In this document: positions 8,864-43,134 of the stretch, piece after piece
Numbering within the stretch: position 1 is the first letter of the stretch
How the letters are laid out: each line of letters starts with the position of its first letter
Source: Micavibrio sp.
GTDB lineage: Bacteria > Patescibacteriota > Minisyncoccia > Moranbacterales > GCA-2747515
Assembly (NCBI GenBank): GCA_020718085.1
Contig: DYDB01000001.1
Span: 47,384 to 111,383, forward strand
DNA: 64,000 nt
Direction: 5' to 3'
Notes under the pieces: generated by a model
Database searches by the model: none
The model's input: the letters and a program-made list of their open reading frames with translations, nothing else
What the model was told of the DNA's origin: nothing
Position numbers and translations under genes: made by a program

Positions 8864-9628
8864 ATGAGAAAATTGATGGCAGTTCTGGTAGTCTTGGTGT
8901 CATGTGCATTTGCGTCAAATTCAATTGCGGCTGTGCACGTCTATGGAAAATTGGAAAGGGTAGCGGCAGTCGTTGTGTATCTTGAGGGTCAAGGTGCACA
9001 AGATGTTTATGCCCATCCCACATCAGAGGTCATGGGAACGTACAAAGGAAAGCCATGGCCCGGTGTCAATGTCGCGACAGTGGAAAGCAGTGATGGATCC
9101 CAGGGTATTTTCGTTCCGGTTTCCAACAGCGTGCTTAAGGAAGGATTGTGCGATGATCAAAAGACGCTTCTGCGAACTTTTGTTCCACCGCCAGCTCCAG
9201 CAAAAAAAGCTCCGGCAAAGAATCTCTATGCTGGTACAGTGCCTGCAAGTTCCATGCGTACCATTCAGAGCGGTGACTCATGTGATGAGCGCCAATTTTC
9301 TGGTATGGTAACAAAGGGAGCGCTCGAGGCATCAGGCGGACAAACCGTCGATGTACTTGAGCTTCATAGACGTGCCGGAAAATCCATGGAATACAAGGCC
9401 AAACGCTTGCGAGTAGATGCATCGTCCGGTATTGCCATTCCGATGGTATGGTCCTCAGACGGAAGCTGTGTACGAAAGTACTCCGAGCAGTCCTTGACTG
9501 AGTCAGAGTTACGGACGCTTCTTTCAACCTCCGAATCGTTGCGGTCTACGACTGTAAGTGATATTGGGCGAAAAAACTTCGGTGCACATCTCACCGAAGG
9601 GGTATATCTGATATATCCGACCAAATAA
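8864..9628 (+). CDS. Secreted protein of unknown function (signal peptide), paralogue of 9812-10249
   Basis: Strong RBS aaggaggg. Signal peptide MRKLMAVLVVLVSCAFASNSIAA. The C-terminal about 110 aa align with the downstream ORF (FSGMVTK...KAKRLRV...GIAxP). Local GC is higher. Confidence 0.6.
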   Translation: MRKLMAVLVVLVSCAFASNSIAAVHVYGKLERVAAVVVYLEGQGAQDVYAHPTSEVMGTYKGKPWPGVNVATVESSDGSQGIFVPVSNSVLKEGLCDDQKTLLRTFVPPPAPAKKAPAKNLYAGTVPASSMRTIQSGDSCDERQFSGMVTKGALEASGGQTVDVLELHRRAGKSMEYKAKRLRVDASSGIAIPMVWSSDGSCVRKYSEQSLTESELRTLLSTSESLRSTTVSDIGRKNFGAHLTEGVYLIYPTK

Positions 9629-9688
9629 GGTGTAAAAAAAGAGCATTGGTCCCCATGTGGATCCGTGCTCTTTTCCTTTTTTCAGCTC

Positions 9689-9717
9689 TTGACAGCGAAG
9701 TGTTTTTGGTATATAAT
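9689..9717 (+). promoter_or_regulatory. Consensus sigma70-type promoter (TTGACA-17-TATAAT)
   Basis: TTGACA at 9689-9694, a 17-nt spacer, and TATAAT at 9712-9717. Lies about 95 nt upstream of the 9812 start. Confidence 0.6.
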
Positions 9718-9811
9718 ACATGGTTCTATGGTGATCGCAGTTCTGTGACACTGAGAATAGGGAATGGTTGTTCTTATTAATAATCATCGAAATCCCAAGG
9801 AGGAAACTGCG

Positions 9812-10249
9812 ATGAAAAAGACCCTGGTGTTGCTGGTTGGGATGTGCGTAGCAGGTTGGGTGGCGAGCGCTTCTGCGGTGGACTTCGTGCAAACGGATGG
9901 AGCGATCTGTAAGGATCGCCCGTTCTCAGGCATGGTCACCAAGGCTGTGCTTGAAGTCGGTCCTTCCGATGCAATCGAAGTGATCGATCGCGGCGCAGAG
10001 TTCAAGAAGCCGGCCGCACGCTTCAAGGCCAAGCGTATCCGAATTGAAGAGGACGGCATTGCGTATCCGCTCATGGATAGCAATGACAAAAAATGCGTCG
10101 CCACAACCGCATCTGCGATGTTTGAAGAGCGAGAAGTGGAAGCCGGACTTCTCATGCCTGGCGAAAAGCTTCGTGCCCTAAGCGTCACGGATGAAGGTCG
10201 CAACAAGATCGGCGAATACAAGACGGTCCAGGTCTGGATCATCGAGTAA
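9812..10249 (+). CDS. Small secreted protein of unknown function, paralogue of 8864-9628
   Basis: RBS aaggagg. Signal peptide MKKTLVLLVGMCVAGWVASASA. Shares the Cys-bracketed domain with the upstream ORF. Confidence 0.6.
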   Translation: MKKTLVLLVGMCVAGWVASASAVDFVQTDGAICKDRPFSGMVTKAVLEVGPSDAIEVIDRGAEFKKPAARFKAKRIRIEEDGIAYPLMDSNDKKCVATTASAMFEEREVEAGLLMPGEKLRALSVTDEGRNKIGEYKTVQVWIIE

Positions 10250-10261
10250 GCGCCGGTAACA

Positions 10262-10310
10262 AGGGTGTTGCAAGAATGCTATAATGGCAAACTTGCAACA
10301 CCCTTTTTTC
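10262..10310 (+). terminator. Rho-independent terminator
   Basis: agggtgttgcaag...cttgcaacaccct: a 13-bp perfect stem followed by TTTTTT. Confidence 0.8.
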
Positions 10311-10371
10311 ATTATAAAATATATCTATTTATCTTTTTTCAAACAGTAAGTAATGATCTAATAACATACAT

Positions 10372-10480
10372 GTCTTTGCGAGGAGCGGAACGAAATATAG
10401 CGACGAAGCAACCTTTGGTCATTGTATAAAAATATAACATATTAGTATGGGATTGCTTCGTTGTCTCTCCTCGCAAAGAC
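10372..10480. repeat. MITE-like repeat, family A (TIR gtctttgcgaggag...acgaagcaa / ttgcttcgt...ctcctcgcaaagac)
   Basis: A 109-bp element with about 30-bp terminal inverted repeats. Related copies lie at 49047-49204 and 58552-58649. Confidence 0.6.
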
Positions 10481-10631
10481 AACTAGATGAAAAGTTTTTT
10501 GGACTGCCACGAATACAAGTTATCCTTGCAGAGACAAAAAGGCGTCTTCGCGAAGTCGCTTTGCGACTGTGGCGAACTAGAGAACTTACATCATTTCACA
10601 TTTTGTACGTTAAATGCACTATCGAAATTGA

Positions 10632-10660
10632 TTGACAAAATATGAAAAATATGATATAAT
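10632..10660 (+). promoter_or_regulatory. Consensus sigma70-type promoter (TTGACA-17-TATAAT)
   Basis: TTGACA at 10632-10637, a 17-nt spacer, and TATAAT at 10655-10660. Lies about 135 nt upstream of the lipoprotein gene. Confidence 0.65.
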
Positions 10661-10797
10661 TGCAAGTTATGTGAATAGTTGTGTATAAAGATCAAAAACG
10701 CTTCTGTGCATAAGAATTTGTGCCCACAAGCGTGATCTTTATCAAAGATCACATGAGGTTTGTAAACTTAAAAATTTAGCCAATGGAGGTTGGTGAT

Positions 10798-11787
10798 ATG
10801 AGATACTACGTTATGTATGTGTTCTGTTGTCTCGTATTGTTGTCCGGTTGTGCCGCTGGAAACCAGGGTAAGGTGCCCAGTTTTGCAATGGTGCAGGGAG
10901 AACAAGGTGTTGCTCTGCCGCATCCCGATGCGGTGGAAGATAAAAACAAGGGGGAGACGCTCGTAACATTTACGGCGATCATTCCACCAGAATTTATTGT
11001 TGAAACACGGGGAACGCTCAAATCCGTGTATCCACTGGTGGGTGCACATATGAGTGATCCGAGCAAAAAGATCGAGGACGGCTTCTGCTATATTGAGGGA
11101 AGTAAAGCACTCTACAAAAATCCGTGGGGACTTATTCCCGCGGTATGTACTGTGACTGGTACAAAGAAGCAATTCGAGAAGTACCGTTGGACAATTGTCA
11201 ATCAAGATGGTGGTGTGTGGGCGACTTCGCCAACAGCAACCGCGATGATCGACGACAAGCAGTGGGACTTCATGAAATTCGAAAATGATTTCACACATCG
11301 CACGGAAGTTTTGACCAAGGTTGGTGATACTCTTTATGAGATCAACGAGTTCTGGAAGGAACGGTACCGTGAACTTGGGCAAGTTCCCAAGAACGATGTA
11401 TATGAGATCGTGATCGATCCTAAAAACCCAAAATGGCAAGCATATCGTGAGAAGCTTATCAAAGAGATGGGTTTTTCGATTGCATTGCCAAACGGTGAGC
11501 CTGTCGTGTCGACGGTTGACCGTGACAAGATGGTTGAGATCCTTGCTGAAGTACCACGTGTGACAAAATGGCAGAAGATGGTGTCACATTTGGGCGTGTC
11601 AATTGGCACGCCGGAGGTCATGGCGATCTCTGCTGCAAGCAGCATATTAAACGGCGGTATAGCTGCGTTGTTCGACAACCAGCTTTATACAAATACGGCC
11701 AGAGGTCTCGCACAGCGACGTGATTTTGCGCCGCATATGAGATTTTGGTACGATGAAGTTCAACAAGCAATGAGGAGCAGACAATGA
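10798..11787 (+). CDS. Lipoprotein of unknown function
   Basis: RBS ggagg. Signal peptide with lipobox LLSGC. Stop overlaps the start of the next ORF (ATGA). Confidence 0.6.
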   Translation: MRYYVMYVFCCLVLLSGCAAGNQGKVPSFAMVQGEQGVALPHPDAVEDKNKGETLVTFTAIIPPEFIVETRGTLKSVYPLVGAHMSDPSKKIEDGFCYIEGSKALYKNPWGLIPAVCTVTGTKKQFEKYRWTIVNQDGGVWATSPTATAMIDDKQWDFMKFENDFTHRTEVLTKVGDTLYEINEFWKERYRELGQVPKNDVYEIVIDPKNPKWQAYREKLIKEMGFSIALPNGEPVVSTVDRDKMVEILAEVPRVTKWQKMVSHLGVSIGTPEVMAISAASSILNGGIAALFDNQLYTNTARGLAQRRDFAPHMRFWYDEVQQAMRSRQ

Positions 11788-13181
11788 GAACACGAACTTT
11801 TCTATCGGCATTGTTGCTTTGTGTTGTGGGTGCTGTTAGTGCCTTCGCACAGAGCGGATCTGACACGTTGGGACTTTCTTCCAATGTTGTTTCAACACTC
11901 AACAAGTCTTCCGTATGTGCCACTGTGGTGCAGACGGGAGAGAAAATCACCTTTGCCAATGTTGGCGGGGTGAAAGTCGGCAAAACCGATAGTGGTATCT
12001 GGATGCAATTTATCGCATTCCAAGACAAACTCCCGTTCAAAGGAGCAAATGCCATTATCGCAAAAGGTGGAAACATTGAGCGCAAGGTTGTAGATGTCAT
12101 GCCCTGTGAAGGAAATGCATCAATTGCAATCGCATCAATGACCACCGAACCGGCACGCATTGCGCGACCGAATCGCCGAGTTGCGGAGGAGTTATCTGCA
12201 GCGCAAACCCAAAATGTGGGAGCGCAACGGCAGATCATGCCAAAAGCACTTCCGCAAGGCGTGGAAGAGGTTGAGCGTGAAGTTGCAAAACTTTTCCCGC
12301 AAGATGAAGTTGTAGAAGATAGTGGTCCAAAACCGGTCGTCGCTTACGATAGTAAGAACGCCGCCGGTGAAGGATCTGTCTTTGACAATCTGGACGCAAA
12401 GGTTACAGTTACACGCATGGGTTCCATGAGTGGCAGTGATCGCAAGCGTGATGGGAAAAGCATTACTGTTGAAGGTACGTATTATCAACCGGCGTGGGAT
12501 GGTAAGGGTCGCATAGGCGCCCATGCCACTTACACCAATGGCGAAAGTAATAGCAAAAACCCCGCCAATGGTCGTACAACAAATACAGATTATTGGAAGG
12601 TTGGCGCTGGTGGTGTATCTGAGTATGAGTTTGCCCCCAATACAGATTTCGTTGTAGAGGGTGATCTGCTCTATCAGGACACCAAGAGTCGTATTCCAGC
12701 AAAAAATTTCCGCTCCCATCAAACGGAGTGGCAAGCAGATCTCGATCTGTCGATTGCCAGCGATGACAATCGGAAAAATGGCTATGCCTTATTTCCGTAT
12801 TGGGAAGTCGGTGCCAGGGCAATCAAGTCATTCGGTGTGGATTATTCCGACACCAGCAATAAGAATGACTGGTATGATAACAGTCGCTACAGCGTCTACG
12901 GTAATGTGGATCTCTATGATTTCCATGCTGGAGATGTATGGCGATTCACTCCAACTGCCGGTTTGGAAGGTGGGTACATGGTTGGGAAAAGTGCTTCTTT
13001 CATAGAGCCTGGACTCAGCATCAAAACCGCCTACAAAGGCAAAGAGATCCTCGAGACGGGTGTTGACTGGCGATTCCTCTCCGGAGATAATCGTTGGAAC
13101 GCATTTGGTACGATCAGACCACTGCGCATTGGACGCATTCTGTGGGCCGAAGGCACCGCAGATTACGAATCAAAACGTTAA
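11784..13181 (+). CDS. Secreted beta-rich protein (outer-membrane beta-barrel-like), function unknown
   Basis: Signal peptide ...AVSAFAQS. The C-terminal half is rich in alternating aromatic/Gly residues (YxY, WxV). Translationally coupled to the lipoprotein. Confidence 0.5.
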   Translation: MRTRTFLSALLLCVVGAVSAFAQSGSDTLGLSSNVVSTLNKSSVCATVVQTGEKITFANVGGVKVGKTDSGIWMQFIAFQDKLPFKGANAIIAKGGNIERKVVDVMPCEGNASIAIASMTTEPARIARPNRRVAEELSAAQTQNVGAQRQIMPKALPQGVEEVEREVAKLFPQDEVVEDSGPKPVVAYDSKNAAGEGSVFDNLDAKVTVTRMGSMSGSDRKRDGKSITVEGTYYQPAWDGKGRIGAHATYTNGESNSKNPANGRTTNTDYWKVGAGGVSEYEFAPNTDFVVEGDLLYQDTKSRIPAKNFRSHQTEWQADLDLSIASDDNRKNGYALFPYWEVGARAIKSFGVDYSDTSNKNDWYDNSRYSVYGNVDLYDFHAGDVWRFTPTAGLEGGYMVGKSASFIEPGLSIKTAYKGKEILETGVDWRFLSGDNRWNAFGTIRPLRIGRILWAEGTADYESKR

Positions 13182-13284: not shown

Positions 13285-13332
13285 GTCATTCCCGCGTAGC
13301 CTGCCTGCCGGTAGGCAGGGTCGGAATGACAA
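13285..13332. repeat. Family B repeat core (reverse orientation, palindromic)
   Basis: gcctgcctgccggtaggcagggtcggaatgac is the reverse complement of the B1/B2 core. It is flanked by a gtcattcc / ggaatgac inverted pair. Confidence 0.5.
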
Positions 13333-22681: not shown

Positions 22682-22754
22682 GCCACTTTAGCTCAGTTGG
22701 TAGAGCATCGGTTTTGTAAACCGCAGGTCGTCAGTTCGAGTCTGACAAGTGGCT
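22682..22754 (+). tRNA. tRNA-Thr (anticodon UGU)
   Basis: Cloverleaf folded by hand: acceptor gccactt/aagtggc, anticodon loop tttgtaa with U33-UGU-A37, short variable loop, T-loop ttcgagt. CCA is not encoded. Confidence 0.75.
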
Positions 22755-22868
22755 CAAGACAGTAGAAAGTTTGTAAAGTTAAAAGTTATGAAGGAAGGAT
22801 CTGTGTGTATATTACACACTTATTATCTTTTGACTTTATGAACTTTTCAACTTTGTGACTGTTAAATT

Positions 22869-22951
22869 GGGTCGGTGGCAGAGTGGTCAAATGCACCTGA
22901 CTGTAAATCAGGCGTCTTCGGACTTCGGGGGTTCAAATCCCTCCCGGCCCA
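22869..22951 (+). tRNA. tRNA-Tyr (anticodon GUA)
   Basis: Anticodon stem-loop cctga/ctgtaaa/tcagg. The long variable arm (cgtcttcggacttcg) is typical of bacterial Tyr. T-loop ttcaaat. Confidence 0.8.
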
Positions 22952-23019
22952 CAATACAACCAAGAGAGCGGATGTGGCCGATTACTGTAAAGTGTCGGCT
23001 TTATCTGTAAAAGGCATAT

Positions 23020-23092
23020 GCCTAGATAGCTCAGTCGGTAGAGCACATCCATGGTAAGGATGAGGTCGCCGGTTCAATCCCGGCTCTAGGCT
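23020..23092 (+). tRNA. tRNA-Thr (anticodon GGU)
   Basis: Acceptor gcctaga/tctaggc. D-arm gctcagtcggtagagc. Anticodon loop atggtaa (GGU). T-loop ttcaatc. Confidence 0.85.
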
Positions 23093-23173
23093 CAGAATAA
23101 TAGTGTATAATAGAGAACATGGGAGTCTGTTGTGCGAGGACAGGCGGGCCTGTCCACCGGAGTTAAAACGTAG

Positions 23174-23244
23174 GCGGGTGTAGTTTAGTGGTAGAACGAG
23201 GGTCTCCAAAACCCTTAGTGGGAGTTCGATTCTCTCCACCCGTG
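23174..23244 (+). tRNA. tRNA-Trp (anticodon CCA)
   Basis: Anticodon stem-loop agggt/ctccaaa/accct (CCA). T-arm gggag/ttcgatt/ctctc. The acceptor pairs with a G1-U72 wobble. Exact ends are +/-2 nt. Confidence 0.75.
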
Positions 23245-23251
23245 CATACAA

Positions 23252-23286
23252 AAAACAGCTTCTTCTGGGGGGGGGCTGTTTTTGTT
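23252..23286 (+). terminator. Rho-independent terminator after the tRNA cluster
   Basis: aacagc ... G-rich loop ... gctgttttt followed by gttt. Confidence 0.5.
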
Positions 23287-23368
23287 TATCTTGATAGTAT
23301 AATAGCTGAAACCATGTTATGCTCAATAGACAAAAAATACGGTGTAATGAAGTAGATTTCAGAAAAAT

Positions 23369-23998
23369 ATGCAGAGTAATCTGAAAAAAATATTAGATGA
23401 TTTTAAGGACAAGCGATCTATTTATGAAGAGTTCTGTTTGGCGATGTATAAATTCTTGGATAGCATGCTTGTTATTGATGGTTGCAAATACCAGATATTT
23501 TATAGGATCAAAGAATTTGACAAACTTGAAGAAAAAATTATACGTAAAGAAAAAGAGGGGATCGTCTATACGAACCTTGAAGAATTGGAAGATTTGGCGG
23601 GTCTTCGAATCCTATTTTATCTCGAGTCAGATAAGGATAAATTTGTGAAAAAATTACTATCGGAATTGACGGGAGATGTTACTATTAAAAATCATAAAAA
23701 ATTATCCGGCTATGAAGCAACACACATCATTACAAGTTTTGGAGAAAAAAGGATCAGTTTGAGCGAATACAGCAAGTTTGAGGGATTGAAATGTGAAATA
23801 CAATTGACATCCATCTTGCATCATGCGTGGTCGGAAATTGAACATGACATGATCTACAAAGACACTTTGGGAGTCAAGAATAGTAAAGTGAAAAGTGTTT
23901 TTATAAAAAAAGAGATGAAAAAGATCCTATCAAATTATCTCATTAAGGCTTCCACTGAGCTGGACAATCTGGTCAAAAAAATTAAAAAAAGGAAATAA
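23369..23998 (+). CDS. RelA/SpoT-domain nucleotidyltransferase (small alarmone synthetase-like; possible toxSAS-type toxin)
   Basis: Motifs EDLAGLRILF, GYEATHII and EIQLTSILHHAWSEIEHDMIYK align with the RelQ/RelP synthetase motifs (DIAGLRI, GYRSxHL, EIQIRTxxMxxWAxxEHxxxYK). 209 aa. Lies in an AT-rich, codon-shifted island. Confidence 0.7.
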   Translation: MQSNLKKILDDFKDKRSIYEEFCLAMYKFLDSMLVIDGCKYQIFYRIKEFDKLEEKIIRKEKEGIVYTNLEELEDLAGLRILFYLESDKDKFVKKLLSELTGDVTIKNHKKLSGYEATHIITSFGEKRISLSEYSKFEGLKCEIQLTSILHHAWSEIEHDMIYKDTLGVKNSKVKSVFIKKEMKKILSNYLIKASTELDNLVKKIKKRK

Positions 23999-24119
23999 AA
24001 TGGCTTCACCCGTGCAGATAGGAATAGAACCAAAATTTGAGGCTAGGGAAGCCTTTTTTTGGTTTCAATCTTTTAGGATAAGAATGGAAGAGTGGAAATT
24101 TTTATGATAGAGTTTAATT

Positions 24120-25220
24120 ATGAAAGCAAAAGTTCATAAAATTGAAGACTTTGGTTATGATCCATTTTTTGAATCCAATCGTGTAAAACTCGGACTGGAT
24201 GTTTTTCATGTGGCTCGAGTGATCTCTGAACAAAAGGGAATTTATAAGGTTAAAAATGCCAATGGTGAATATTTGGCAAAAATAACCGGAAAACAAATTT
24301 TTAAAGCCTCTTCTAAGGAAGATTATCCGTCTGTGGGTGATTGGGTGGCAATTTCTGAATTGGAAGTGCATAAAGCAATGATCCGTAGTATATTACCGAG
24401 GAGAACAGTGATGAAGAGGAAATGCAGTGGTAAAAAAAATGAAACCCAAATAATAGCAACGAATATTGACGTGGCCTTTGTCATTGAATCAGTTGATAGG
24501 GACTATAATTTGAATCGATTTGAAAGATATTTTGCCATAGCGAATGATGGGGGCATAAAACCAGCTATCATATTGAACAAAGTAGATCTGATCTCCAAAG
24601 AAGAATTATATGCAAAAATTTCCCAAATAAAAGACAGATTCAAAGATGTTGAAGTCATTCCAACTAGCGCTGTGACGGATGAAGATCTGGATGAATTAAG
24701 GGGATATATAAAAAAGGGTAAAACGTATTGTTTTCTAGGTTCCTCCGGAGTGGGAAAATCTTCTTTGATAAATAAACTGATTGGTAGTGGGAGTGAGATA
24801 AAAACTGGAGACGTCGGTTTACGTTCCGGGAGAGGAAAGCATGTAACTACAACGAGAGAAATGTATTTTTTGAAAAATGGTGGCATTGTAATAGATACTC
24901 CCGGGATGCGAGAGGTGGGGATGACTGACACAACTGCTGGTGTAGATAATTTATTCGATGAGATCACAACTCTCGCCAAGAAATGTAAATTTATCGACTG
25001 TGATCATATTCATGAACCTAAATGCGAAGTTTTAGTTGCGCTAAAAGCAGGCCTGTTGGACAAAGAAAAGTATGCCAATTACATTCGATTAAAAAAAGAG
25101 TCTGAACATTATGAGATGACTCAACGTGAAAAAAAAGAAAAAGATCGAAAATTTGGTAAATTTATGAAAAATGCCAAGAAGGATTTGAAAAAGTATAAAA
25201 ACAAAAATTATAGTGTGTAA
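24120..25220 (+). CDS. rsgA: RsgA/YjeQ-type circularly permuted GTPase (ribosome small-subunit biogenesis GTPase family)
   Basis: N-terminal OB-like region. G4 NKVDL precedes G1 GSSGVGKSSLIN. GRGKHVTTTRE and IDTPGMRE motifs. C-terminal zinc finger CKFIDCDHIHEPKC. Lys-rich tail. Confidence 0.85.
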   Translation: MKAKVHKIEDFGYDPFFESNRVKLGLDVFHVARVISEQKGIYKVKNANGEYLAKITGKQIFKASSKEDYPSVGDWVAISELEVHKAMIRSILPRRTVMKRKCSGKKNETQIIATNIDVAFVIESVDRDYNLNRFERYFAIANDGGIKPAIILNKVDLISKEELYAKISQIKDRFKDVEVIPTSAVTDEDLDELRGYIKKGKTYCFLGSSGVGKSSLINKLIGSGSEIKTGDVGLRSGRGKHVTTTREMYFLKNGGIVIDTPGMREVGMTDTTAGVDNLFDEITTLAKKCKFIDCDHIHEPKCEVLVALKAGLLDKEKYANYIRLKKESEHYEMTQREKKEKDRKFGKFMKNAKKDLKKYKNKNYSV

Positions 25221-25346
25221 TCTGTAATTGGCGGTGGATTCATCGAAGATGGCTCTCGATAAATAGTTAATTCCCACTAAGTCTAAGTTTGCATTTTCTT
25301 AACAAAATGCTACTTTTAGAATAGCTTAATATTTAGATACAACCTA

Positions 25347-25661
25347 ATGTTCTGGCGAAAGCACAAAAATATACATTTAATTTCAGCAGTCTTTCTTGGT
25401 TGTTTATTTTTGTCTGGGTGTGACGATTCAAACAATCGACTAGAGGAAATTGAACAAGCAAGAGAAATGGGCTACGAGATGGGAATGGAGGAGGGTTATA
25501 GTGTTGGTATAGATGATGTAAAATCCGGACTTGTGTCAATTGAGGATACTGAGATTTGCTTGGATTACTATGAATTAGGCTATCAAGATGCTATCACTGA
25601 TATCGAGAAATACGGAATAACAAGAGTAAAGAATGAAGATTTGCCAAGAGAAGTTCAATAA
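25347..25661 (+). CDS. Small acidic lipoprotein, hypothetical
   Basis: Signal peptide with lipobox FLSGC, followed by an acidic E/G/Y-rich 80-aa region. Confidence 0.45.
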   Translation: MFWRKHKNIHLISAVFLGCLFLSGCDDSNNRLEEIEQAREMGYEMGMEEGYSVGIDDVKSGLVSIEDTEICLDYYELGYQDAITDIEKYGITRVKNEDLPREVQ

Positions 25662-25745
25662 TGATTATGAATGCAAAAAATTGTTAAAAATATTTTTGAC
25701 TAAATTTATTTTTTTAGTAAAATCCTGTTGAGTATTTGAAAAAAT

Positions 25746-26384
25746 ATGACCGAAGAAGAATATAAGAATAGATTTGAAAAGTTATATCAACTTCTAACAA
25801 GAGCTCATTTGTGTTTTTTTGTTTGGAAGGGTCTTAAAAATGTAAAATATCAACCTCAATTTGACAGAGATAAAAATTTTTGGAGTGCTGTCGTTCCTTC
25901 CCTAGAGTCATCGTGGCTTCAATCTTTAGCTAATATTTACGAAGAATCAGATTACAGCAGAAAGGATAAAATTATATCGGTATATTCATTGATAAATAAT
26001 CAAAAAGATGTAGAAAGAAAGGTGAGAGCGGAAGTTATTATTAATCAGAATCAATCCATAATTAAAAACATTTCAATTCTTAGGAATAATCAGTTAGCTC
26101 ATTATAATGCCAATCATTTATTAAACCCAAAAGAGTTATTGGAAAAATTTCCTGTGAAATATGGGGAAGTGGAAAGATTGCTAGAAATAACTGAAGAACT
26201 ATTACGTTGTCTGCACCCCGAAAACAATCATAGTTTTTCGTTTGAGGGATTTGATAAGGAATCACAACGGGATTCAACTTTAATTATGGATAGGATTGAG
26301 TATTATCTAAAGCAGGAAAAGAAACACTATGAGAAAATGAAAGATGAAAATAAGTATGTTCATTTTCCGCCTCAAAAAGACTGA
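25746..26384 (+). CDS. Hypothetical protein with an Rx5H (HEPN-like) motif; candidate Abi-type protein
   Basis: 212-aa all-helical-looking ORF. LRNNQLAHYNANH contains R-x5-H in a predicted helix, as in HEPN RNase families (Rx4-6H). No other motifs. Confidence 0.5.
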   Translation: MTEEEYKNRFEKLYQLLTRAHLCFFVWKGLKNVKYQPQFDRDKNFWSAVVPSLESSWLQSLANIYEESDYSRKDKIISVYSLINNQKDVERKVRAEVIINQNQSIIKNISILRNNQLAHYNANHLLNPKELLEKFPVKYGEVERLLEITEELLRCLHPENNHSFSFEGFDKESQRDSTLIMDRIEYYLKQEKKHYEKMKDENKYVHFPPQKD

Positions 26385-26539
26385 TTATTATCAAATTTTT
26401 TCTTAAATCGGATGTGTATACATTCGTTTTTTTCATAAAAATATCCCTAAAAACATTTATCACATCGTACAGATACAAAAAAGAGATTTTATGCAATCTC
26501 TTTTCGTGCTGAGAATTATGATATAATCACAGAATTCAT

Positions 26540-27109
26540 ATGCAAAACACTATCGAAAATAAAACTATTCAAAAAGAAGATTGGTCTGGAAAAAAACTAG
26601 GATCATTTGAAATTTCTGACTGTACATTCAACGGATGTGATTTTACGGAAACTGATTTTTCCGGAACGAAGTTCATTGATTGTATCTTCGATGGATGTAA
26701 TTTCTCGAACTCAAAAATATTAAATTGCAGTTTTTGCGACGTTACTTTTAAGGAATGTAAAATAAGTGGTGTGGTCTTTGGTGAAATAAATAAATTCTTA
26801 CTTTCTTGGAAATTTTATGATTGTGCCATAGATCTTTGCAGTTTCAGTATGTTGGATATCAAAAACTCCGAGTTTATTGCATGTGAGATCTACGAAACTG
26901 ATTTTGTGAACACTGATCTTAGTGAGTCTAATTTCTCACAATCTGATCTGAGGGGGAGTAAATTTCAAGATACAAATTTAAGTAAAGCTAATTTTGTGGG
27001 AGCAATAAATTATTTTATAGATCCTACAGCCAATAAGATCACAAAAGCGAGATTTTCATCACCGGAAGTGTTAGCTCTGCTTGCGGGTTTTGATATAACC
27101 ATTGAATAG
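26540..27109 (+). CDS. Pentapeptide-repeat protein (Qnr/MfpA-like fold)
   Basis: Tandem A(D/N)(L/F)xx pentapeptides throughout (CTFNGCDFTETDFSGTKFIDCIFDGCNFSNSKILNCSF...SDLRGSKFQDTNLSKANFVGA). Confidence 0.75.
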   Translation: MQNTIENKTIQKEDWSGKKLGSFEISDCTFNGCDFTETDFSGTKFIDCIFDGCNFSNSKILNCSFCDVTFKECKISGVVFGEINKFLLSWKFYDCAIDLCSFSMLDIKNSEFIACEIYETDFVNTDLSESNFSQSDLRGSKFQDTNLSKANFVGAINYFIDPTANKITKARFSSPEVLALLAGFDITIE

Positions 27110-27140
27110 ATTGAGAGCTTGCGCAATTATCATTATTTCT

Positions 27141-27198
27141 GTCATTCCGACCCTGCCTACCGGCAGGCAGGCTTCGACTTTGCTCAGGATGACAAGTG
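27141..27198. repeat. MITE-like repeat, family B (best copy)
   Basis: gtcattccgaccctgcctaccggcaggcaggcttcgactttgctcaggatgacaagtg. Internal palindrome cctgcctaccggcaggcagg. Near-identical to 6358-6416. Confidence 0.6.
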
Positions 27199-27249
27199 CG
27201 TAATTTTTGAGAGTATCAGTTTAGAATAGGGCTTATCTTATTTTTTTAA

Positions 27250-27296: not shown

Positions 27297-27755
27297 CTAT
27301 TGCCTAAGGTTTTTCCCAATTTCTATGAGTAATGCTGAAAACTCATCCATTTTTTTTGTTTTGTTCTTTGGAATGACATCTTCACAAAAGATCTCCATGC
27401 GTTCAATGCCTTCTTCCAGCTTCATTTTTCCTCCAGGTGCGAGTACTACTTGACTGACGCGAGCATCGTGCGCATGTGCTTCTTTTTTAATGAGGCCGAT
27501 CTTTTCCATCGGAAGGAGCAGGCGAGTGATGCCGGAGGCGGTTAGACCCACTTTCTCTGCCAAATCGATACGACGCATAGTGCAATTTGTTGCCTGACTA
27601 AGGTGGTAGAGAATGATAAATTCATTAAATCCAATACCATTCAAACGTGCGTCTAAGCGACGATTTAATTCGGTCTGAAATTTTGCAATATCAATGAGAA
27701 ACTTCGCGGATGAATTAATTTTGTACATATTATTGATTAATAGTTGATATGTCAA
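27297..27755 (-). CDS. MarR-family transcriptional regulator
   Basis: Winged-HTH region LSQATNCTMRRIDLAEKVGLTASGITRLLLPMEKIGLI. 152 aa. Confidence 0.8.
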   Translation of the reverse strand: MTYQLLINNMYKINSSAKFLIDIAKFQTELNRRLDARLNGIGFNEFIILYHLSQATNCTMRRIDLAEKVGLTASGITRLLLPMEKIGLIKKEAHAHDARVSQVVLAPGGKMKLEEGIERMEIFCEDVIPKNKTKKMDEFSALLIEIGKNLRQ

Positions 27756-27948
27756 ACATATATCAAATTGTAATGTGTGTCAAGCGATGCAAAAATGTGA
27801 GGTGTGCAAAACAGTGGAATACATATGAGAACATTGACAAAATCGTGAAAAAGTGTAGAATTGTCGATTGGCGTTATTTTACAAAAGAATAGATATTATA
27901 AATGATATTCAGTCATTTTTTCACAATAAACTCAGGAGGAGTACGGCA

Positions 27949-29613
27949 ATGACGGAGACAAAAGATAATACCGGTATGAGCGAAGAATGTGCGAATTTTT
28001 TTGAGATCGCATTTGAGCATCATCCAATGCAGACGATCGCCGTGAATCTTGAGGGAGTGATCGTTGCAGTAAATCGTGCAAAACGAAATTCGGGGGATCG
28101 CGCGGCGGAAAAGGGCATGAAAATGTATGTGGATTATGCTGCGGGTCACGATATTGATATGTTTGCGGAATTGCTCAAAGTGATGCAAGGTACGGAAACA
28201 GTAACGTATCCCATGATGGCATATCGGGATAAGATCCTTGATATTACCATCACGCCCACACCATATGGTGCGCTCATTATTTCAGCAGATGTGACACAGC
28301 GTATCATTACAGAGCAAAAGCTTAAAAGAAGTGAGGAGCGGTTTCGATTGCTCGTGGAACAGATCTCATGCATGGCCATTCAGGGATATAAATTGGATGG
28401 TACGATCACATATTGGAACAAGGCATCAGAAAAACTGTATGGTTATCATGCTGATGAAGTGATTGGTGACAATTTGCTTGAGACGATTATTCCTCCAGGT
28501 ATGCGAGAAGATGTAAAACTGGGCATGGATTTTATGATCAAAAGCGGGGAGCCAATTCCCTCTGGCGAATTGGCGCTTATGCGCAAAGATGGGACGCTTG
28601 TTACGGTATTTTCCAGTCATGCACTTCTGTGTGATCATAATGGAGATTCGGAATTGTTTTGTGTGGATATCGATCTCACAGAACAGAAAAAAGCGGAGGA
28701 CCTACTGCGAAAAAATGAAGCACTTCTGCGCGCGCTCACAGAGGCGGCACAAGATGCGATCATTGCGATGAATGAAGAGGGTAAGATCTTTCTGTGGAAT
28801 CCAGCTGCACAACGCATGCTTGGATATTCTTGCGGGGAGGTTATAGGACAGCCGTTGCATGAGTGTATTGCACCAGAAGATTATCGCGAGATGTCAAAAA
28901 AAGGCATTGAGCAGTTCATTCAGACTGGTGAAGGTGCGGCAATCGGAAAAACTACTGATCAAAGAGCGTTACATAAAGATGGACATGTGATCGATGTGCA
29001 ATTATCTCTCTCTCGTCTTCCCATGGAAAATGGTTGGGGATCTGTAGGTATTTTGCGGGATGTAACTGAACAAAAATTGGCGGAGCGGGCATTGCGCGAA
29101 AGTGAAGAGCGCTTGCGAGTTGTGAGCATGACGGATCAATTGACGGGCCTGTACAATCGGTGGCATTTCAGTCATGAGTTACAGCGAGAAGTGGATCGTT
29201 CAGAGCGGTATGGACAACCGTTGTCAGTGATCATGTTCGACATTGACGACTTTAAACAGTTTAATGAAATATACGGACATGCGGCAGGAGATCGTGTTTT
29301 GCAAATTTTGGGACACGTTGTGAAAGGTAGTATGCGAAAGAGCGACATTGCATGTCGTATTGGCGGGGAGGAATTCTTTATCATTTTGCCAATGACCTCA
29401 AGATCTGTTGCGCAAACAATCGCATTTCGGATCAGTACAAGCCTTAAGATGCAATCTTTAGACTTTGCACTTGATAAGAAGATCACCTTCAGTTGTGGCG
29501 TATGTCAATATACCTCTGGACAAAGTCCGGATGATCTCTCTCGTCGTGTCGATCAACTGATGCGACAAGCAAAGAGTGAAGGCAAGGATCGGATCATTTG
29601 TGATCAGACGTGA
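27949..29613 (+). CDS. PAS-domain diguanylate cyclase (GGDEF)
   Basis: Two to three PAS S-box segments (ITYWNKASEKLYGY..., IFLWNPAAQRMLGY...). C-terminal GGDEF with RIGGEEFFIILP and RYGQPLSVIMFDIDDFKQFN. Confidence 0.85.
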   Translation: MTETKDNTGMSEECANFFEIAFEHHPMQTIAVNLEGVIVAVNRAKRNSGDRAAEKGMKMYVDYAAGHDIDMFAELLKVMQGTETVTYPMMAYRDKILDITITPTPYGALIISADVTQRIITEQKLKRSEERFRLLVEQISCMAIQGYKLDGTITYWNKASEKLYGYHADEVIGDNLLETIIPPGMREDVKLGMDFMIKSGEPIPSGELALMRKDGTLVTVFSSHALLCDHNGDSELFCVDIDLTEQKKAEDLLRKNEALLRALTEAAQDAIIAMNEEGKIFLWNPAAQRMLGYSCGEVIGQPLHECIAPEDYREMSKKGIEQFIQTGEGAAIGKTTDQRALHKDGHVIDVQLSLSRLPMENGWGSVGILRDVTEQKLAERALRESEERLRVVSMTDQLTGLYNRWHFSHELQREVDRSERYGQPLSVIMFDIDDFKQFNEIYGHAAGDRVLQILGHVVKGSMRKSDIACRIGGEEFFIILPMTSRSVAQTIAFRISTSLKMQSLDFALDKKITFSCGVCQYTSGQSPDDLSRRVDQLMRQAKSEGKDRIICDQT

Positions 29614-29620
29614 AAATAAA

Positions 29621-29662
29621 AATCGGTCTCCATGAATTAATGGAGGCCGATTTTCTTTTTTA
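29621..29662 (+). terminator. Rho-independent terminator
   Basis: aatcggtctcca-tgaattaa-tggaggccgatt: a 12-bp stem with one G-U pair, followed by ttttcttttttatt. Confidence 0.85.
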
Positions 29663-29761
29663 TTGACATTTTATGCATATAATGAAACGATGTTGACACA
29701 AGTTGTTCGTTTACAGAATGGTAGAACAATAAAAAACATGAAGCAGTCAAGGAGGTATGGC

Positions 29762-30817
29762 ATGAAGCAGGGTAAGCGGTGGGGTGATGTGATCATTTTT
29801 ACAGGTTTGGATAACGATTCATTGGCAGAAGGTATGTGTCTCAAATTGCGCGAATACCTTGGGGAAGACCCGCAAAAGGGACATATCAGATTTGGTAAAT
29901 TTGATGATATCGAGATCAAAGACTCCTTTCCTGATTTCGAGGATATCCGCGGGAAAACGGTTGTATTCTTTGAATGTCTTAAATCTCTGGAAACGACTGT
30001 GCGTCTCTTGCAATTGTGTTGGGCGGCGAAGTATCTATATGGTGCAAAATATGTCATTATCGCAACATCCTTCTTGCATTATCGTCGGCAAGATCATCCG
30101 GAGAAAATTCATGAGATCCATCGCAATAGATGGTTGATAGAACAAATGAAACACAATGGCGTAGATCATTTGATCGTAGCAACACCTCATTCTGACCAAA
30201 CGCGAAAAAATTGTGAGGAGGTTGGCATTGCGTTTCGCGAAGTTGATTTTACGGAAGCGTTCGCAAGTGTATGCAAGCCGTTGCTTCCGGAAAAAGGAGA
30301 AAATAAAAAGGCGGTTGTTTTTGCTCCTGATGAAGGTTCAATTGCAAGGGCGATCGTATTTGCACAACATCTTGATGTTGACGTTTTGTTCCAACTTAAA
30401 GATCGCGGTCACAACAACGAAGTGGCGATCTTGGAGGCAGATCAAGAAATGATCGACCAGATCATTGCAAAGTACGGCTATGAACGTCTGTATTTTGCGA
30501 CGCATGATCTGATCAAAGATGCAATCGTGATCATGATCGATGATGAGGTGACAACCGGCACTACAGCCAACAAGCAAGCAAAGAATTTGTTGAAATGGGG
30601 TGCTGCCATAATCATGTTGTTTGTGACGCATCCAGTTTGCAGTAATCAGTGGATGGAAAAATTGATGGATGGTGCACCATTTGGCAAGATCTGTTTTACC
30701 AATACGATCTTTCGAGGCAAGGAGCATCGTACAGGTGGTAGTGTGCATGATGTTTCAGCGGCGGGACTCATGGCATCAGGTGTCTATCGCGTTTTGCGAC
30801 AATTGTTCAATCGGTAG
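29762..30817 (+). CDS. prs: Ribose-phosphate pyrophosphokinase (PRPP synthetase)-like
   Basis: N-terminal Pribosyltran_N-like region. PRTase motif VIMIDDEVTTGTT. RBS aaggagg upstream of the ATG at 29762. Confidence 0.65.
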   Translation: MKQGKRWGDVIIFTGLDNDSLAEGMCLKLREYLGEDPQKGHIRFGKFDDIEIKDSFPDFEDIRGKTVVFFECLKSLETTVRLLQLCWAAKYLYGAKYVIIATSFLHYRRQDHPEKIHEIHRNRWLIEQMKHNGVDHLIVATPHSDQTRKNCEEVGIAFREVDFTEAFASVCKPLLPEKGENKKAVVFAPDEGSIARAIVFAQHLDVDVLFQLKDRGHNNEVAILEADQEMIDQIIAKYGYERLYFATHDLIKDAIVIMIDDEVTTGTTANKQAKNLLKWGAAIIMLFVTHPVCSNQWMEKLMDGAPFGKICFTNTIFRGKEHRTGGSVHDVSAAGLMASGVYRVLRQLFNR

Positions 30818-41841: not shown

Positions 41842-42372
41842 ATGCAAAGAAGAACATATTCTTGGATGAATCCATCAGTCGAAGTGCGAGAAACATTAGA
41901 GACGGGCAGAGGGATTTTTGCAATAAAAAATATTAGTAAGGGAGATTTGATCTCTGTGTTTGGTGGGTATGTGATAACACGTGCTGAGGAGCTTGAGCTG
42001 CCTGATGAATTTAATGACGAAGGTGTTCAAATTAGTGAGGATTTAATTTTGGGCATAAAAAGTGAAGCGGATCTTGAAGATGCGAGCTATATTAATCACA
42101 GTTGTAATCCAAACGCTGGATATAATGGACAAATATTTCTTGTGGCGATGCATGATATCAAAAATGGTGAGGAGATTACATTTGATTATGCGATGTGCTT
42201 ATATCAGTCAGAAAATGAAAAAAAGTATTCTTTTAAATGTTTCTGTGGAGCATTAAATTGTCGGAAAATTATTACAGACAATGATTGGAAAATTCCTGAG
42301 TTACAAAAAAAATATGATGGCTATTTCCAATGGTTTTTACAAAAGAGGATTAATGATAAGAATGATAACTAG
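41842..42372 (+). CDS. SET-domain protein (putative protein lysine methyltransferase)
   Basis: GRGIFA...NHSCNPNAGY...EEITFDY. Post-SET cysteines CFCGALNC. 176 aa. AT-rich, codon-shifted region. Confidence 0.8.
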   Translation: MQRRTYSWMNPSVEVRETLETGRGIFAIKNISKGDLISVFGGYVITRAEELELPDEFNDEGVQISEDLILGIKSEADLEDASYINHSCNPNAGYNGQIFLVAMHDIKNGEEITFDYAMCLYQSENEKKYSFKCFCGALNCRKIITDNDWKIPELQKKYDGYFQWFLQKRINDKNDN

Positions 42373-42378
42373 TTGTGT

Positions 42379-43134
42379 ATGAATGTCTATACGAACATCG
42401 ATGATGCTTCTTTGGAAATAAAAAACAGATGGAATAATGATGGTTTGAAAAAAAAAGTTTTGGAATATTTTGATGGAGATTTGCCTAAAACATTTTGTGA
42501 GCCACGTGCTGTACTAAGTCGCAATATTGCCACTCCGGATATTGAATGTGTGCATTTTTTTAACTTGGCAAAAAAGATTGGATTATTGCCAATTATTTGT
42601 GAAGGTGTTGGTGATAAATTTTCATCTGCGAGTTCTGATAAAGTTGGGCTTGTAAAATTAAATTTTTTTGACGGTTATGATAAAAACCATCAGTTGTTAA
42701 GACATCATAAAAAAATTATTGACATACCTTCAAATGATGGTAAAAAGTTCAATGTAATTAATACATTATGGGGTGAAAATCTAGTCGATTTTCACCATCG
42801 AATATTAAAAGAATATTTACATGAAAGTGTTGACTTATTTGATGATTTTGACTGGTTTCATAAAATTGGCATGAAAACAACAATTGGTGAATATTACAAA
42901 AATTTTTTTGTTTTTTTTGTATGTCATGGGGTATTATTTGAAAATTTTGTCACTGATGCAGAGGAATTGGAATTCTTTGATAAAATAGTTCAACCAGCAT
43001 TTGAATATATCGAAAGTTATTTTGGTGTAAAACCTCTCATTGTGGAACTTGCTCCTCATGATCAAGCTAATAACCCATATTGGTGGTGCTATCCGTCAGA
43101 TGTAGAAAAATATATTTTAAAAGTAGATATGTAA
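42379..43134 (+). CDS. Hypothetical protein (no recognisable domain) immediately downstream of the SET gene
   Basis: ATG 7 nt after the SET stop. About 251 aa, soluble, His-rich patches (HHKK, FHHRI). Confidence 0.5.
   Translation: MNVYTNIDDASLEIKNRWNNDGLKKKVLEYFDGDLPKTFCEPRAVLSRNIATPDIECVHFFNLAKKIGLLPIICEGVGDKFSSASSDKVGLVKLNFFDGYDKNHQLLRHHKKIIDIPSNDGKKFNVINTLWGENLVDFHHRILKEYLHESVDLFDDFDWFHKIGMKTTIGEYYKNFFVFFVCHGVLFENFVTDAEELEFFDKIVQPAFEYIESYFGVKPLIVELAPHDQANNPYWWCYPSDVEKYILKVDM

Follow-up and report, generated by a model that had tools for sequence, protein, structure and literature searches.

Overview of the locus

Five open reading frames (ORFs) lie side by side on the plus strand of a 64-kb stretch of DNA (contig DYDB01000001.1, referred to here as the window, to whose numbering all positions refer unless another locus is named), at 23369-23998, 24120-25220, 25347-25661, 25746-26384 and 26540-27109. 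In this order, they encode a small alarmone synthetase (SAS), the GTPase RsgA, a lipoprotein, an AbiU2-family HEPN protein and a pentapeptide-repeat protein (PRP). A first-pass annotation, made from the sequence alone, had placed the five genes exactly as the ORF listing of the window does, in coordinates and in strand, and its naming of them (RelA/SpoT protein, RsgA-type circularly permuted GTPase, lipoprotein, Rx5H HEPN-like protein, pentapeptide protein) is upheld by domain searches and motifs. It had also suggested that the five form an alarmone-based toxin/immunity or abortive-infection (Abi) unit, a suggestion that does not survive comparison with relatives: the combination is confined to this species, and related loci with a synthetase 74-92 % identical to that of the window lack RsgA, AbiU2 and the lipoprotein. 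The stretch, from the genome of a groundwater member of the Moranbacteria, is probably a mosaic of chromosomal genes that are transcribed independently and do not make up a functional unit. The fallback that the annotation itself had offered, a mosaic of independent genes, is thus the best description, with the refinement that the first gene appears to be native core and not cargo. The five genes are new members of known families, and represent no new toxin or defence system. Exact copies of the locus proteins are present on groundwater metagenome contigs, and the named close homologues belong to Candidatus Moranbacteria/Moraniibacteriota, within the candidate phyla radiation (CPR/Patescibacteria).

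The neighbourhoods of synthetase homologues were compared in 80 GTDB loci and nine metagenome loci, with a reach of 10 kb. Within this distance of the synthetase homologue, none of these loci has a homologue of RsgA, AbiU2 or the lipoprotein, and the synteny of the five genes is not kept in the relatives. In loci L013 and L014, where the synthetase is 92 % identical to that of the window, the gene order is synthetase, yggT, PRP, a family 2 glycosyltransferase (GT2) and an ATP-binding cassette (ABC) transporter. A PRP gene lies immediately upstream of the synthetase gene in L015 and L016 (84 % identity), and 5 kb upstream in L004 and L017 (80 % and 77 %). In L007 (83 %), the synthetase gene is flanked by a dCMP deaminase gene and greA, and in L010 and L025 (75 % and 74 %) it adjoins yggT. 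When all ORFs within 3 kb of the synthetase were clustered across 84 loci, no recurrent partner family emerged. A toxin-antitoxin reading of the synthetase was rejected on the same clustering, which yielded no conserved neighbour.

The gaps between the genes, described as short in the first-pass annotation, measure 84-155 bp, and several hold terminator-like hairpins, so that they are no sign of an operon. A hairpin search located one such structure between the synthetase gene and rsgA (24039-24055, plus strand) and another 3' of the AbiU2 gene (26409-26426, plus strand). A 35-amino acid (aa) ORF at 24000-24107, called automatically on public contigs, overlaps the first of these hairpins. It is seen in the same strain only and has no counterpart in L013, in which yggT starts 57 bp past the synthetase gene; it is probably not a gene. 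This ORF was also considered, and rejected, as an antitoxin of the synthetase, given that it overlaps the terminator hairpin and is strain-specific. The reading of the five genes as one module is unsupported because the unit is not conserved, because hairpins lie between the genes, and because a strain that is 99.5 % identical lacks two of them (see below).

The small alarmone synthetase

The first gene (23369-23998, plus strand) encodes a protein of 209 aa that is assigned as a solo RelP/RelQ-like SAS on the basis of its Pfam RelA_SpoT match, its predicted structure and its invariant catalytic residues. The RelA_SpoT profile (PF04607) matches residues 46-165 of 209 at 50.2 bits, against a gathering threshold of 27, and there is no other domain. 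A phmmer search of PDB sequences returned only RelQ and RelP at E <= 1. The AlphaFold2 (AF2) model has a predicted local distance difference test (pLDDT) score of 90.6, and its best Foldseek matches (5dec, 6ex0 and 6ewz) extend over the full length in 205-213 columns, with template modelling (TM) scores of 0.60-0.73. Ranks 1-39 of the Foldseek search are occupied by RelQ/RelP or Rel structures, and CapRel appears at ranks 40 and 46 (E = 4e-6 to 1e-5).

The residues R46, K48, K56, D75, R80, G114-Y115, E143 and Q145 are the same in each of 42 family members, and R46/K48/K56/D75/R80/Y115/E143 align to R78/K80/K88/D107/R112, the stacking tyrosine and E174 of RelP. In RelP, the RxKxxxxxxxK motif contacts the ATP phosphates, DxxGxR provides a Mg2+ ligand and the adenine sandwich, the G-loop tyrosine stacks on the acceptor base, and the glutamate of the ExQ motif is a Mg2+ ligand along with the aspartate (PMC7983052). 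The protein would then be a single-domain pyrophosphokinase, with ATP as the pyrophosphate donor and the 3'-OH of a purine nucleotide as the acceptor. The fold and the catalytic residues fix the class of enzyme; the acceptor is most likely GDP or GTP, and the product would be the guanosine penta- or tetraphosphate (p)ppGpp.

Like RelP and RelQ of the Firmicutes (SAS2 and SAS1; 6EWZ, 6FGK, 5DEC, 2BE3), the protein has about 210 aa, an N-terminal helix, an alpha/beta core and a C-terminal helix; all of the donor-ATP, Mg2+ and acceptor-stacking residues are present, and it stands alone, with no antitoxin gene. However, it is only ~20-24 % identical to these enzymes, its family has GYEATH and EIQLTS where RelP and RelQ have GYRSxH and EIQIRT, and it occurs in CPR genomes, in which it ranks with the best-conserved proteins. 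The equivalog cutoff for RelQ/YjbM is far from reached (NF053588, 33.4 bits versus 320). Judged from these sequence comparisons, the protein appears to represent a distinct SAS subfamily and not RelQ itself. With the toxic SAS proteins (toxSAS: CapRel, FaRel, FaRel2, PhRel and PhRel2; PMC7229694), it shares the RelA_SpoT synthetase fold, together with domain-level matches to the PADLOC family PDC-S33 and to the phage family phrog_9640. Unlike them, it has neither a conserved adjoining antitoxin nor a fused C-terminal antitoxin domain, it is vertically inherited and slowly evolving, and none of them appears in its phmmer list of PDB sequences at E <= 1. A check against PADLOC, which the first-pass annotation had recommended, gave a match to the candidate family PDC-S33 (41 bits) for the synthetase, and no Abi model matched AbiU2. 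Of the 349 positions of the PDC-S33 profile, only 41-175 are matched, and both this match and that to phrog_9640 are limited to the synthetase domain shared with these profiles of ~350-365 aa.

The conservation of this protein sets it apart from its surroundings. Between the window and L010, the synthetase is 75 % identical, whereas PrfA (RF1), RpsB (S2), Tsf (EF-Ts) and L31 are 58-65 % identical; between the window and L013, the synthetase reaches 92 % and Tsf 67 %; and between the window and L016, the synthetase reaches 84 %, with the PAS-GGDEF and phosphoribosyl pyrophosphate (PRPP)-synthetase-like proteins at 42-47 %. In every pair, whatever the protein identity, the same codon is used at only 50-61 % of the conserved residues. 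The synonymous sites of the gene are saturated, which rules out recent horizontal gene transfer as the cause of the high identity. Within the Moranbacteria, RpsB, EF-Ts and RF1 are all less well conserved than the synthetase, on which purifying selection is very strong. Such constraint is unusual for a protein of a reduced CPR genome.

The first-pass annotation had counted the synthetase gene as cargo of a genomic island. Against this stand its codon usage, which is typical of the window, the presence of the same tRNA cluster upstream of it in L010 and L013, and purifying selection stronger than that on the translation proteins. These observations point to a native, vertically inherited and functionally important gene that behaves as a core gene, and neither as island cargo nor as a toxin-antitoxin toxin. 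Outside the CPR, the ~210-aa subfamily occurs at 40-54 % identity in scattered lineages (loci L018-L047), whose carriers include Syntrophobacteraceae, Smithella, NC10, Lysobacterales, Nitrospirae and archaeal metagenome-assembled genomes (MAGs).

The RsgA GTPase

The second gene (24120-25220, plus strand) encodes RsgA/YjeQ, the GTPase of late 30S-subunit assembly, as identified by TIGR00157 and RsgA_GTPase. The protein scores 157.1 bits against TIGR00157 (equivalog cutoff for RsgA, 100) and 159.7 bits against RsgA_GTPase over residues 91-268, and it has a weak RsgA_N match at residues 33-88. The translation contains the GTPase motifs in the order G4-G1-G3 (NKVD, GSSGVGKS and DTPG), along with CKFIDCDHIHEPKC, and a zinc finger of the form C-x4-C-x-H-x5-C is legible in it. 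The protein is 67-77 % identical to annotated RsgA from many CPR lineages, and the E. coli RsgA structures are matched at E = 1e-33. By these motifs and profiles, it reads as a canonical RsgA with an OB (oligonucleotide/oligosaccharide-binding) fold, a circularly permuted GTPase and a zinc finger. It resembles E. coli RsgA/YjeQ (2YKR, 5NO2) in this architecture and in exceeding the TIGR00157 cutoff; it differs in that the window copy has genome-atypical codons and a species-specific location. No second rsgA gene was found within the 64-kb window.

RsgA would mature the 30S subunit here as elsewhere, and its position beside the synthetase gene, which is unique to this species among the compared loci, would reflect a species-specific rearrangement. 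GTPases of the RsgA class are known targets of (p)ppGpp and are inhibited by it in other bacteria (PMC10582724). Inhibition of this kind is general physiology that requires no linkage between the genes, and there is no hint of a dedicated linkage in this locus.

The strain-variable cassette

The lipoprotein and AbiU2 genes lie together on a strain-variable cassette of ~1.24 kb (25267-26505; blastn limits 25231-26516), which is the only demonstrably variable DNA of the stretch. The cassette is present in the window, in L001 and in L096, and absent from haplotype L002 (assembly GCA_017973895.1). From prfA to the rsgA stop codon, L002 is 99.4-99.7 % identical to the window, up to position 25230; past this point it has 36 unmatched bases, after which the match resumes at 26517, upstream of the PRP gene. 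L096, a 1232-bp contig of the same assembly, corresponds to 25374-26605 of the window at 99.9 % identity. L002 and L096 end at the same position in the PRP gene, as two contigs would at a branch point in the assembly graph. Since one assembly contains both L002, without the cassette, and L096, with it, two haplotypes co-exist.

Differences between L002 and the window are concentrated beyond the cassette, with 5 mismatches in 89 positions at the 5' end of the PRP gene versus 27 in 5813 upstream (Poisson p ~1e-4). A search around the cassette for a target-site duplication or terminal inverted repeats gave nothing beyond chance-level matches. Because the junction flanks are diverged, and because neither a target-site duplication nor inverted repeats are present, homologous recombination is a likelier route of exchange than site-specific insertion. 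The cassette would be gained or lost between co-existing strains by recombination of this kind in rsgA and PRP, the genes that flank it.

The first gene of the cassette (25347-25661, plus strand) encodes a small acidic lipoprotein of 104 aa, with the lipobox LSGC and no Pfam match. Its family is very rare: a HMMER search of 1.84 billion representatives found two relatives, at 58 % and 42 % identity, in both of which the lipobox is kept. The lipoprotein is absent from other AbiU2 loci (0 of 8). It was considered as a partner of AbiU2, and this was rejected given that the metagenome scan was empty and that neither relative lies in an AbiU2 locus.

The second gene (25746-26384, plus strand) encodes a 212-aa Rx5H protein of the AbiU2 HEPN family. 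HEPN_AbiU2 (PF18734) is matched at 45.7 bits (versus 26.8) over profile positions 2-189 of 193, and in the motif R113-x5-H119 both R113 and H119 are invariant in 10 members, as is Q116. The gene has the lowest GC content at third codon positions (GC3) and the most atypical codon usage of the five. The model of the protein is all-helical, with a pLDDT of 76 that falls below 50 at residues 117-126, just past the motif, and a Foldseek search with it returned no PDB match at E <= 0.001.

Relatives of this AbiU2 protein, at 39-73 % identity, are found in unrelated contexts, and none was found in viral contigs. The gene in L102 directly follows a Type ISP restriction-modification gene, that in L104 lies between a SIR2_2 gene and an AAA_21/AAA_15 ATPase gene, that in L097 is 5 kb from a serine recombinase, and that in L105 adjoins an IS200-like transposase. 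A further relative, in L099 (156-5619), is 72 % identical and lies ~4.5 kb downstream of rpmG and tRNA-Trp, with NUDIX and nucleoside deoxyribosyltransferase genes as neighbours; this is the same general hotspot as in the window, with other neighbours. The AbiU2 HEPN family, which includes Lactococcus AbiU, has been described next to restriction-modification and defence genes (Anantharaman et al. 2013, PMC3710099), and the contexts of the relatives fit this description. The window protein resembles the Lactococcus AbiU family in its nearly full-length PF18734 match, its invariant Rx5H motif and the defence-gene neighbours of its relatives. It differs in its CPR host, in the lack of a Sel1-repeat partner and of a PADLOC Abi match, and in its placement on a strain-polymorphic 1.24-kb cassette with an orphan lipoprotein. 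To judge from the family, AbiU2 is a predicted RNase that most likely acts in abortive infection, and its gene is the only one of the region with a likely role in defence.

The pentapeptide-repeat protein

The last gene (26540-27109, plus strand) encodes an AlbG/McbG-like PRP of 189 aa that matches Pfam Pentapeptide_4 and Pentapeptide. It aligns over residues 10-188 of 189 with AlbG ("McbG-like protein", 2xt4) at E = 1.3e-33, and it stays below the Qnr and MfpA equivalog cutoffs, the best being NF033086 with 59.9 bits versus 240. Full-length similarity and the same size class thus link it to AlbG/McbG (2XT4/2XT2; related to MfpA and Qnr), whereas its scores under the Qnr/MfpA cutoffs and the lack of an albicidin or microcin gene cluster nearby set it apart. 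The protein is conserved in Moranbacteria: L013, L016, L004 and L017 encode orthologues at 64-73 % identity, in each case no more than 5 kb from the synthetase gene. The protein would be a DNA mimic, likely acting on gyrase, and its gene would be part of the ancestral neighbourhood of the synthetase gene. A literature search found no work that links PRPs with SAS proteins.

Base composition and codon usage

The stretch had been described as more AT-rich than its flanks and shifted in codon usage. The former is confirmed, with a GC content of 0.37, 0.37, 0.31 and 0.31 in the windows from 23 to 27 kb, against a mean of ~0.41 for the whole window, and per-gene GC z-scores of -1.2 to -2.5 across the five genes. 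The codon shift is real for four genes and not for the first: it is significant for RsgA (p = 3e-7), the lipoprotein (3e-3), AbiU2 (4e-7) and the PRP (2e-4), and falls short of significance for the RelA/SpoT gene (p = 0.12). In the five genes together, ATA makes up 34 % of isoleucine codons, AGA and AGG 62 % of arginine codons, and TTA 27 % of leucine codons; the corresponding values are 8 %, 6 % and 5 % in rpsB/tsf/prfA/rpmE, and 10 %, 12 % and 11 % in 18 other long genes. GC3 alone under-reads this shift, which became visible in the counts of specific codons.

An index of ATA, AGA/AGG (AGR) and TTA usage lies at 0.39-0.46 from RsgA through the PRP, compared with a window mean of 0.144 +/- 0.078, which corresponds to z-scores of 3.1-4.0; the synthetase gene has a z-score of 0.9. 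Relatives with lower GC content have an index similar to that of the four-gene run (0.43 in L013, 0.37 in L100). The index of the synthetase and PRP orthologues is likewise above the background of their own genomes, at 0.33 versus 0.15 in L010 and 0.37-0.42 versus 0.23 in L016. Given that it is high in these orthologues too, the signal is in part intrinsic to the genes, due for example to weak expression.

Two other patches of the window have a deviating composition. At 41842-43134, just upstream of a histidine kinase gene, low GC content (0.30-0.34) and atypical codon usage (codon-index z = 3.3 and 2.3) recur in a patch with genes for a SET-domain protein of 176 aa and a 253-aa protein that has no Pfam match; this may be another imported segment. 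At 8864-13181, a GC-rich patch (0.48-0.53 versus 0.41) contains four consecutive plus-strand ORFs (254, 161, 334 and 465 aa) with no Pfam match, and ends beside the second copy of the repeat described below.

The tRNA cluster and the flanks

The tRNA-Thr/Tyr/Thr/Trp cluster that had been placed just 5' of the genes is found by both ARAGORN and Rfam, as tRNA-Thr(tgt), tRNA-Tyr(gta), tRNA-Thr(ggt) and tRNA-Trp(cca), at 22682-23245 on the plus strand. In L010 and L013, the synthetase orthologue is likewise preceded by these four tRNAs, at distances of 1.1 kb and 7.1 kb, respectively, and the cluster is a conserved landmark on this side of the gene. It is followed after tRNA-Trp by a terminator-like hairpin (23251-23283, plus strand) with a 15-pair stem and a T-run, which would separate the tRNA transcript from the synthetase gene. 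Rfam gave only the four tRNAs in the region, with no riboswitch or other regulatory RNA.

The region past tRNA-Trp varies within this Moranbacteria clade. In L013 (3208-9903), seven genes without Pfam annotation lie between tRNA-Trp and the synthetase gene, where L010 has three and the window has none. In addition, L002 (3724-3754) has extra sequence in the gap between tRNA-Thr(ggt) and tRNA-Trp, with ~31 unmatched bases and a 12-base duplicated overlap relative to the window (23141-23152), which constitutes a second small indel between the haplotypes. As the first-pass annotation stated, there is no integrase or recombinase among the ORFs of the region. The far border was searched for an attachment-site (att)-like direct repeat matching the tRNA 3' end, and only chance-level repeats of 14-16 nt came up. 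Of the features expected of a tRNA-targeted island, the recombinase and the direct repeat are thus missing, and strain polymorphism is found for ~25267-26505 only.

At the right edge of the AT-rich stretch, a palindromic repeat (27140-27198) resembling REP (repetitive extragenic palindromic) or MITE (miniature inverted-repeat transposable element) sequences has the terminal inverted repeats TGTCATTCC...GGATGACA. The first-pass annotation had called it MITE-like, and this is borne out by a second copy within the window: 27140-27171 recurs as an exact 32-nt inverted copy at 13300-13331, for which the chance expectation is 0. The divergent MarR gene reported past the repeat is confirmed by a Pfam MarR match at 27297-27755, on the minus strand, and is typical in composition (GC z-score -0.35). 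It opens a flank that is common to relatives, with PAS-GGDEF, PRPP-synthetase-like and 3D-domain genes (L016 has the shared flank genes). The PAS-GGDEF gene, of the diguanylate-cyclase type, and the PRPP-synthetase-like gene adjoin each other both in the window (27868-30817) and in L016 (12160-15025), with the order swapped, which suggests that genes for cyclic di-GMP (c-di-GMP) signalling are kept in these CPR genomes.

Alternative interpretations

The reading preferred here, a mosaic of independently transcribed genes that begins with a native alarmone synthetase, has some observations against it. In the synthetase family, GYEATH for GYRSxH and EIQLTS for EIQIRT are nearly invariant, and the acceptor may therefore differ from GDP or GTP; the best profile match of the protein is a phage-protein family of ~365 aa, phrog_9640, at 86.7 bits; and RsgA, the lipoprotein, AbiU2 and the PRP share a codon signature that is atypical of the window, so that joint import as one block is possible. 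The last point underlies the main rival, according to which the tract from RsgA to the PRP (24120-27109) came as one piece from a CPR relative of lower GC content and now lies between the native synthetase and MarR genes; rsgA would then be xenologous and possibly a second copy. Such an import is possible but on balance unlikely, and the same judgement applies to the xenologous origin of rsgA. The codon index of the four consecutive genes is indeed typical of the lower-GC L013 and L100, but in the higher-GC backgrounds of L010 and L016 the synthetase and PRP orthologues also have a raised index, which makes the signal partly intrinsic. L013, the closest locus by synthetase identity, has yggT and not rsgA between synthetase and PRP, yet the PRP gene at the other end of the supposed block is an ancestral neighbour of the synthetase gene in four relatives. 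The REP/MITE-like repeat at the right edge would provide a border, and the excess of differences in the 5' end of the PRP gene (5/89 versus 27/5813) indicates that recombination tracts reach into it; however, an integrase and a direct repeat are both lacking, the tRNA 3' end does not recur, and at 67-77 % identity to all CPR lineages RsgA gives no donor signal.

Other readings depart further from a mosaic. The synthetase and the PRP might form a functional pair, for example in alarmone-linked control or protection of gyrase, with the genes between them as later insertions. The two genes lie within 5 kb of each other in L013, L016, L004, L017 and the window, in differing arrangements, but this proximity in Moranbacteria is explained, at least in part, by a wider conserved neighbourhood of PAS-GGDEF, PRPP-synthetase-like, 3D-domain and ABC-transporter genes, and there is no PRP within 10 kb in L007, L010 and L025. 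Sulfurospirillum L087 (9974-11711) has a PRP gene of the same family 10 bp past the gene for a 375-aa RelA_SpoT protein; in L092 and L088 (10001-11104), the sister loci from Sulfurospirillum, the synthetase is kept and the PRP has been lost. A generic PRP lies ~450 bp downstream of the synthetase homologue in L063 (295-2002) and L069 (3939-5640), both of which are Desulfobacterota loci, but any PRP at all is found in only 4 of the 80 GTDB loci. The pairing is doubtful, and the proximity of the two genes is a weak lead and not a finding. It is similarly doubtful that the synthetase subfamily is the sole alarmone synthetase of these reduced genomes or makes a non-canonical product, with the nearby PRP reflecting a coupling of nucleotide signalling and gyrase protection; as part of the same proposal, a solo SAS subfamily of ~210 aa with invariant GYEATH and EIQLTS motifs would be an undescribed one. 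That the 209-aa protein is a toxSAS, either a tRNA-CCA pyrophosphokinase or a (pp)pApp synthetase, with an antitoxin that is unlinked, very small or absent, is very unlikely. Its patchy spread across phyla at 40-54 % identity (CPR, Desulfobacterota, NC10, Lysobacterales) and its best profile match to a phage family are consistent with this, as is the replacement in the family of two basic residues otherwise kept by (p)ppGpp synthetases, given that a smaller basic acceptor patch has been tied to tRNA targeting in toxSAS (PMC11782079). However, no neighbour is conserved in the 84 loci, the protein stops at residue 209 with no fused C-terminal pseudo-zinc-finger domain, RelP and RelQ match better than CapRel in both structure and sequence, and conservation above that of ribosomal proteins, with stable placement in small genomes, is the opposite of typical toxin-antitoxin dynamics. 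Least probable of all is the joint action of the five genes as an alarmone-based toxin/immunity or Abi system, in which the product of the synthetase acts on the adjoining RsgA and the HEPN protein and the PRP serve as effector or immunity proteins; the chance of this is slight. Adjacency on one strand is offset by the terminator-like hairpins between the genes, by the restriction of the combination to one species and by the 99.5 % identical strain that lacks two of the five. RsgA does belong to a documented class of (p)ppGpp targets (PMC10582724), but the synthetase is a conserved core gene, and the 41-bit match to the candidate defence family PDC-S33 spans the shared synthetase domain only.

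Implications

The mosaic reading makes this locus a cautionary case, in which an association of a SAS, a GTPase of a (p)ppGpp-target class, a HEPN protein and a PRP dissolves when relatives are compared. Two of its parts have a significance of their own. The co-existing CPR haplotypes that differ by the AbiU2 cassette represent defence-gene turnover in the wild, and the Moranbacteria synthetase offers a starting point for studies of whether alarmone signalling takes place in ultra-small CPR bacteria and what form it takes.

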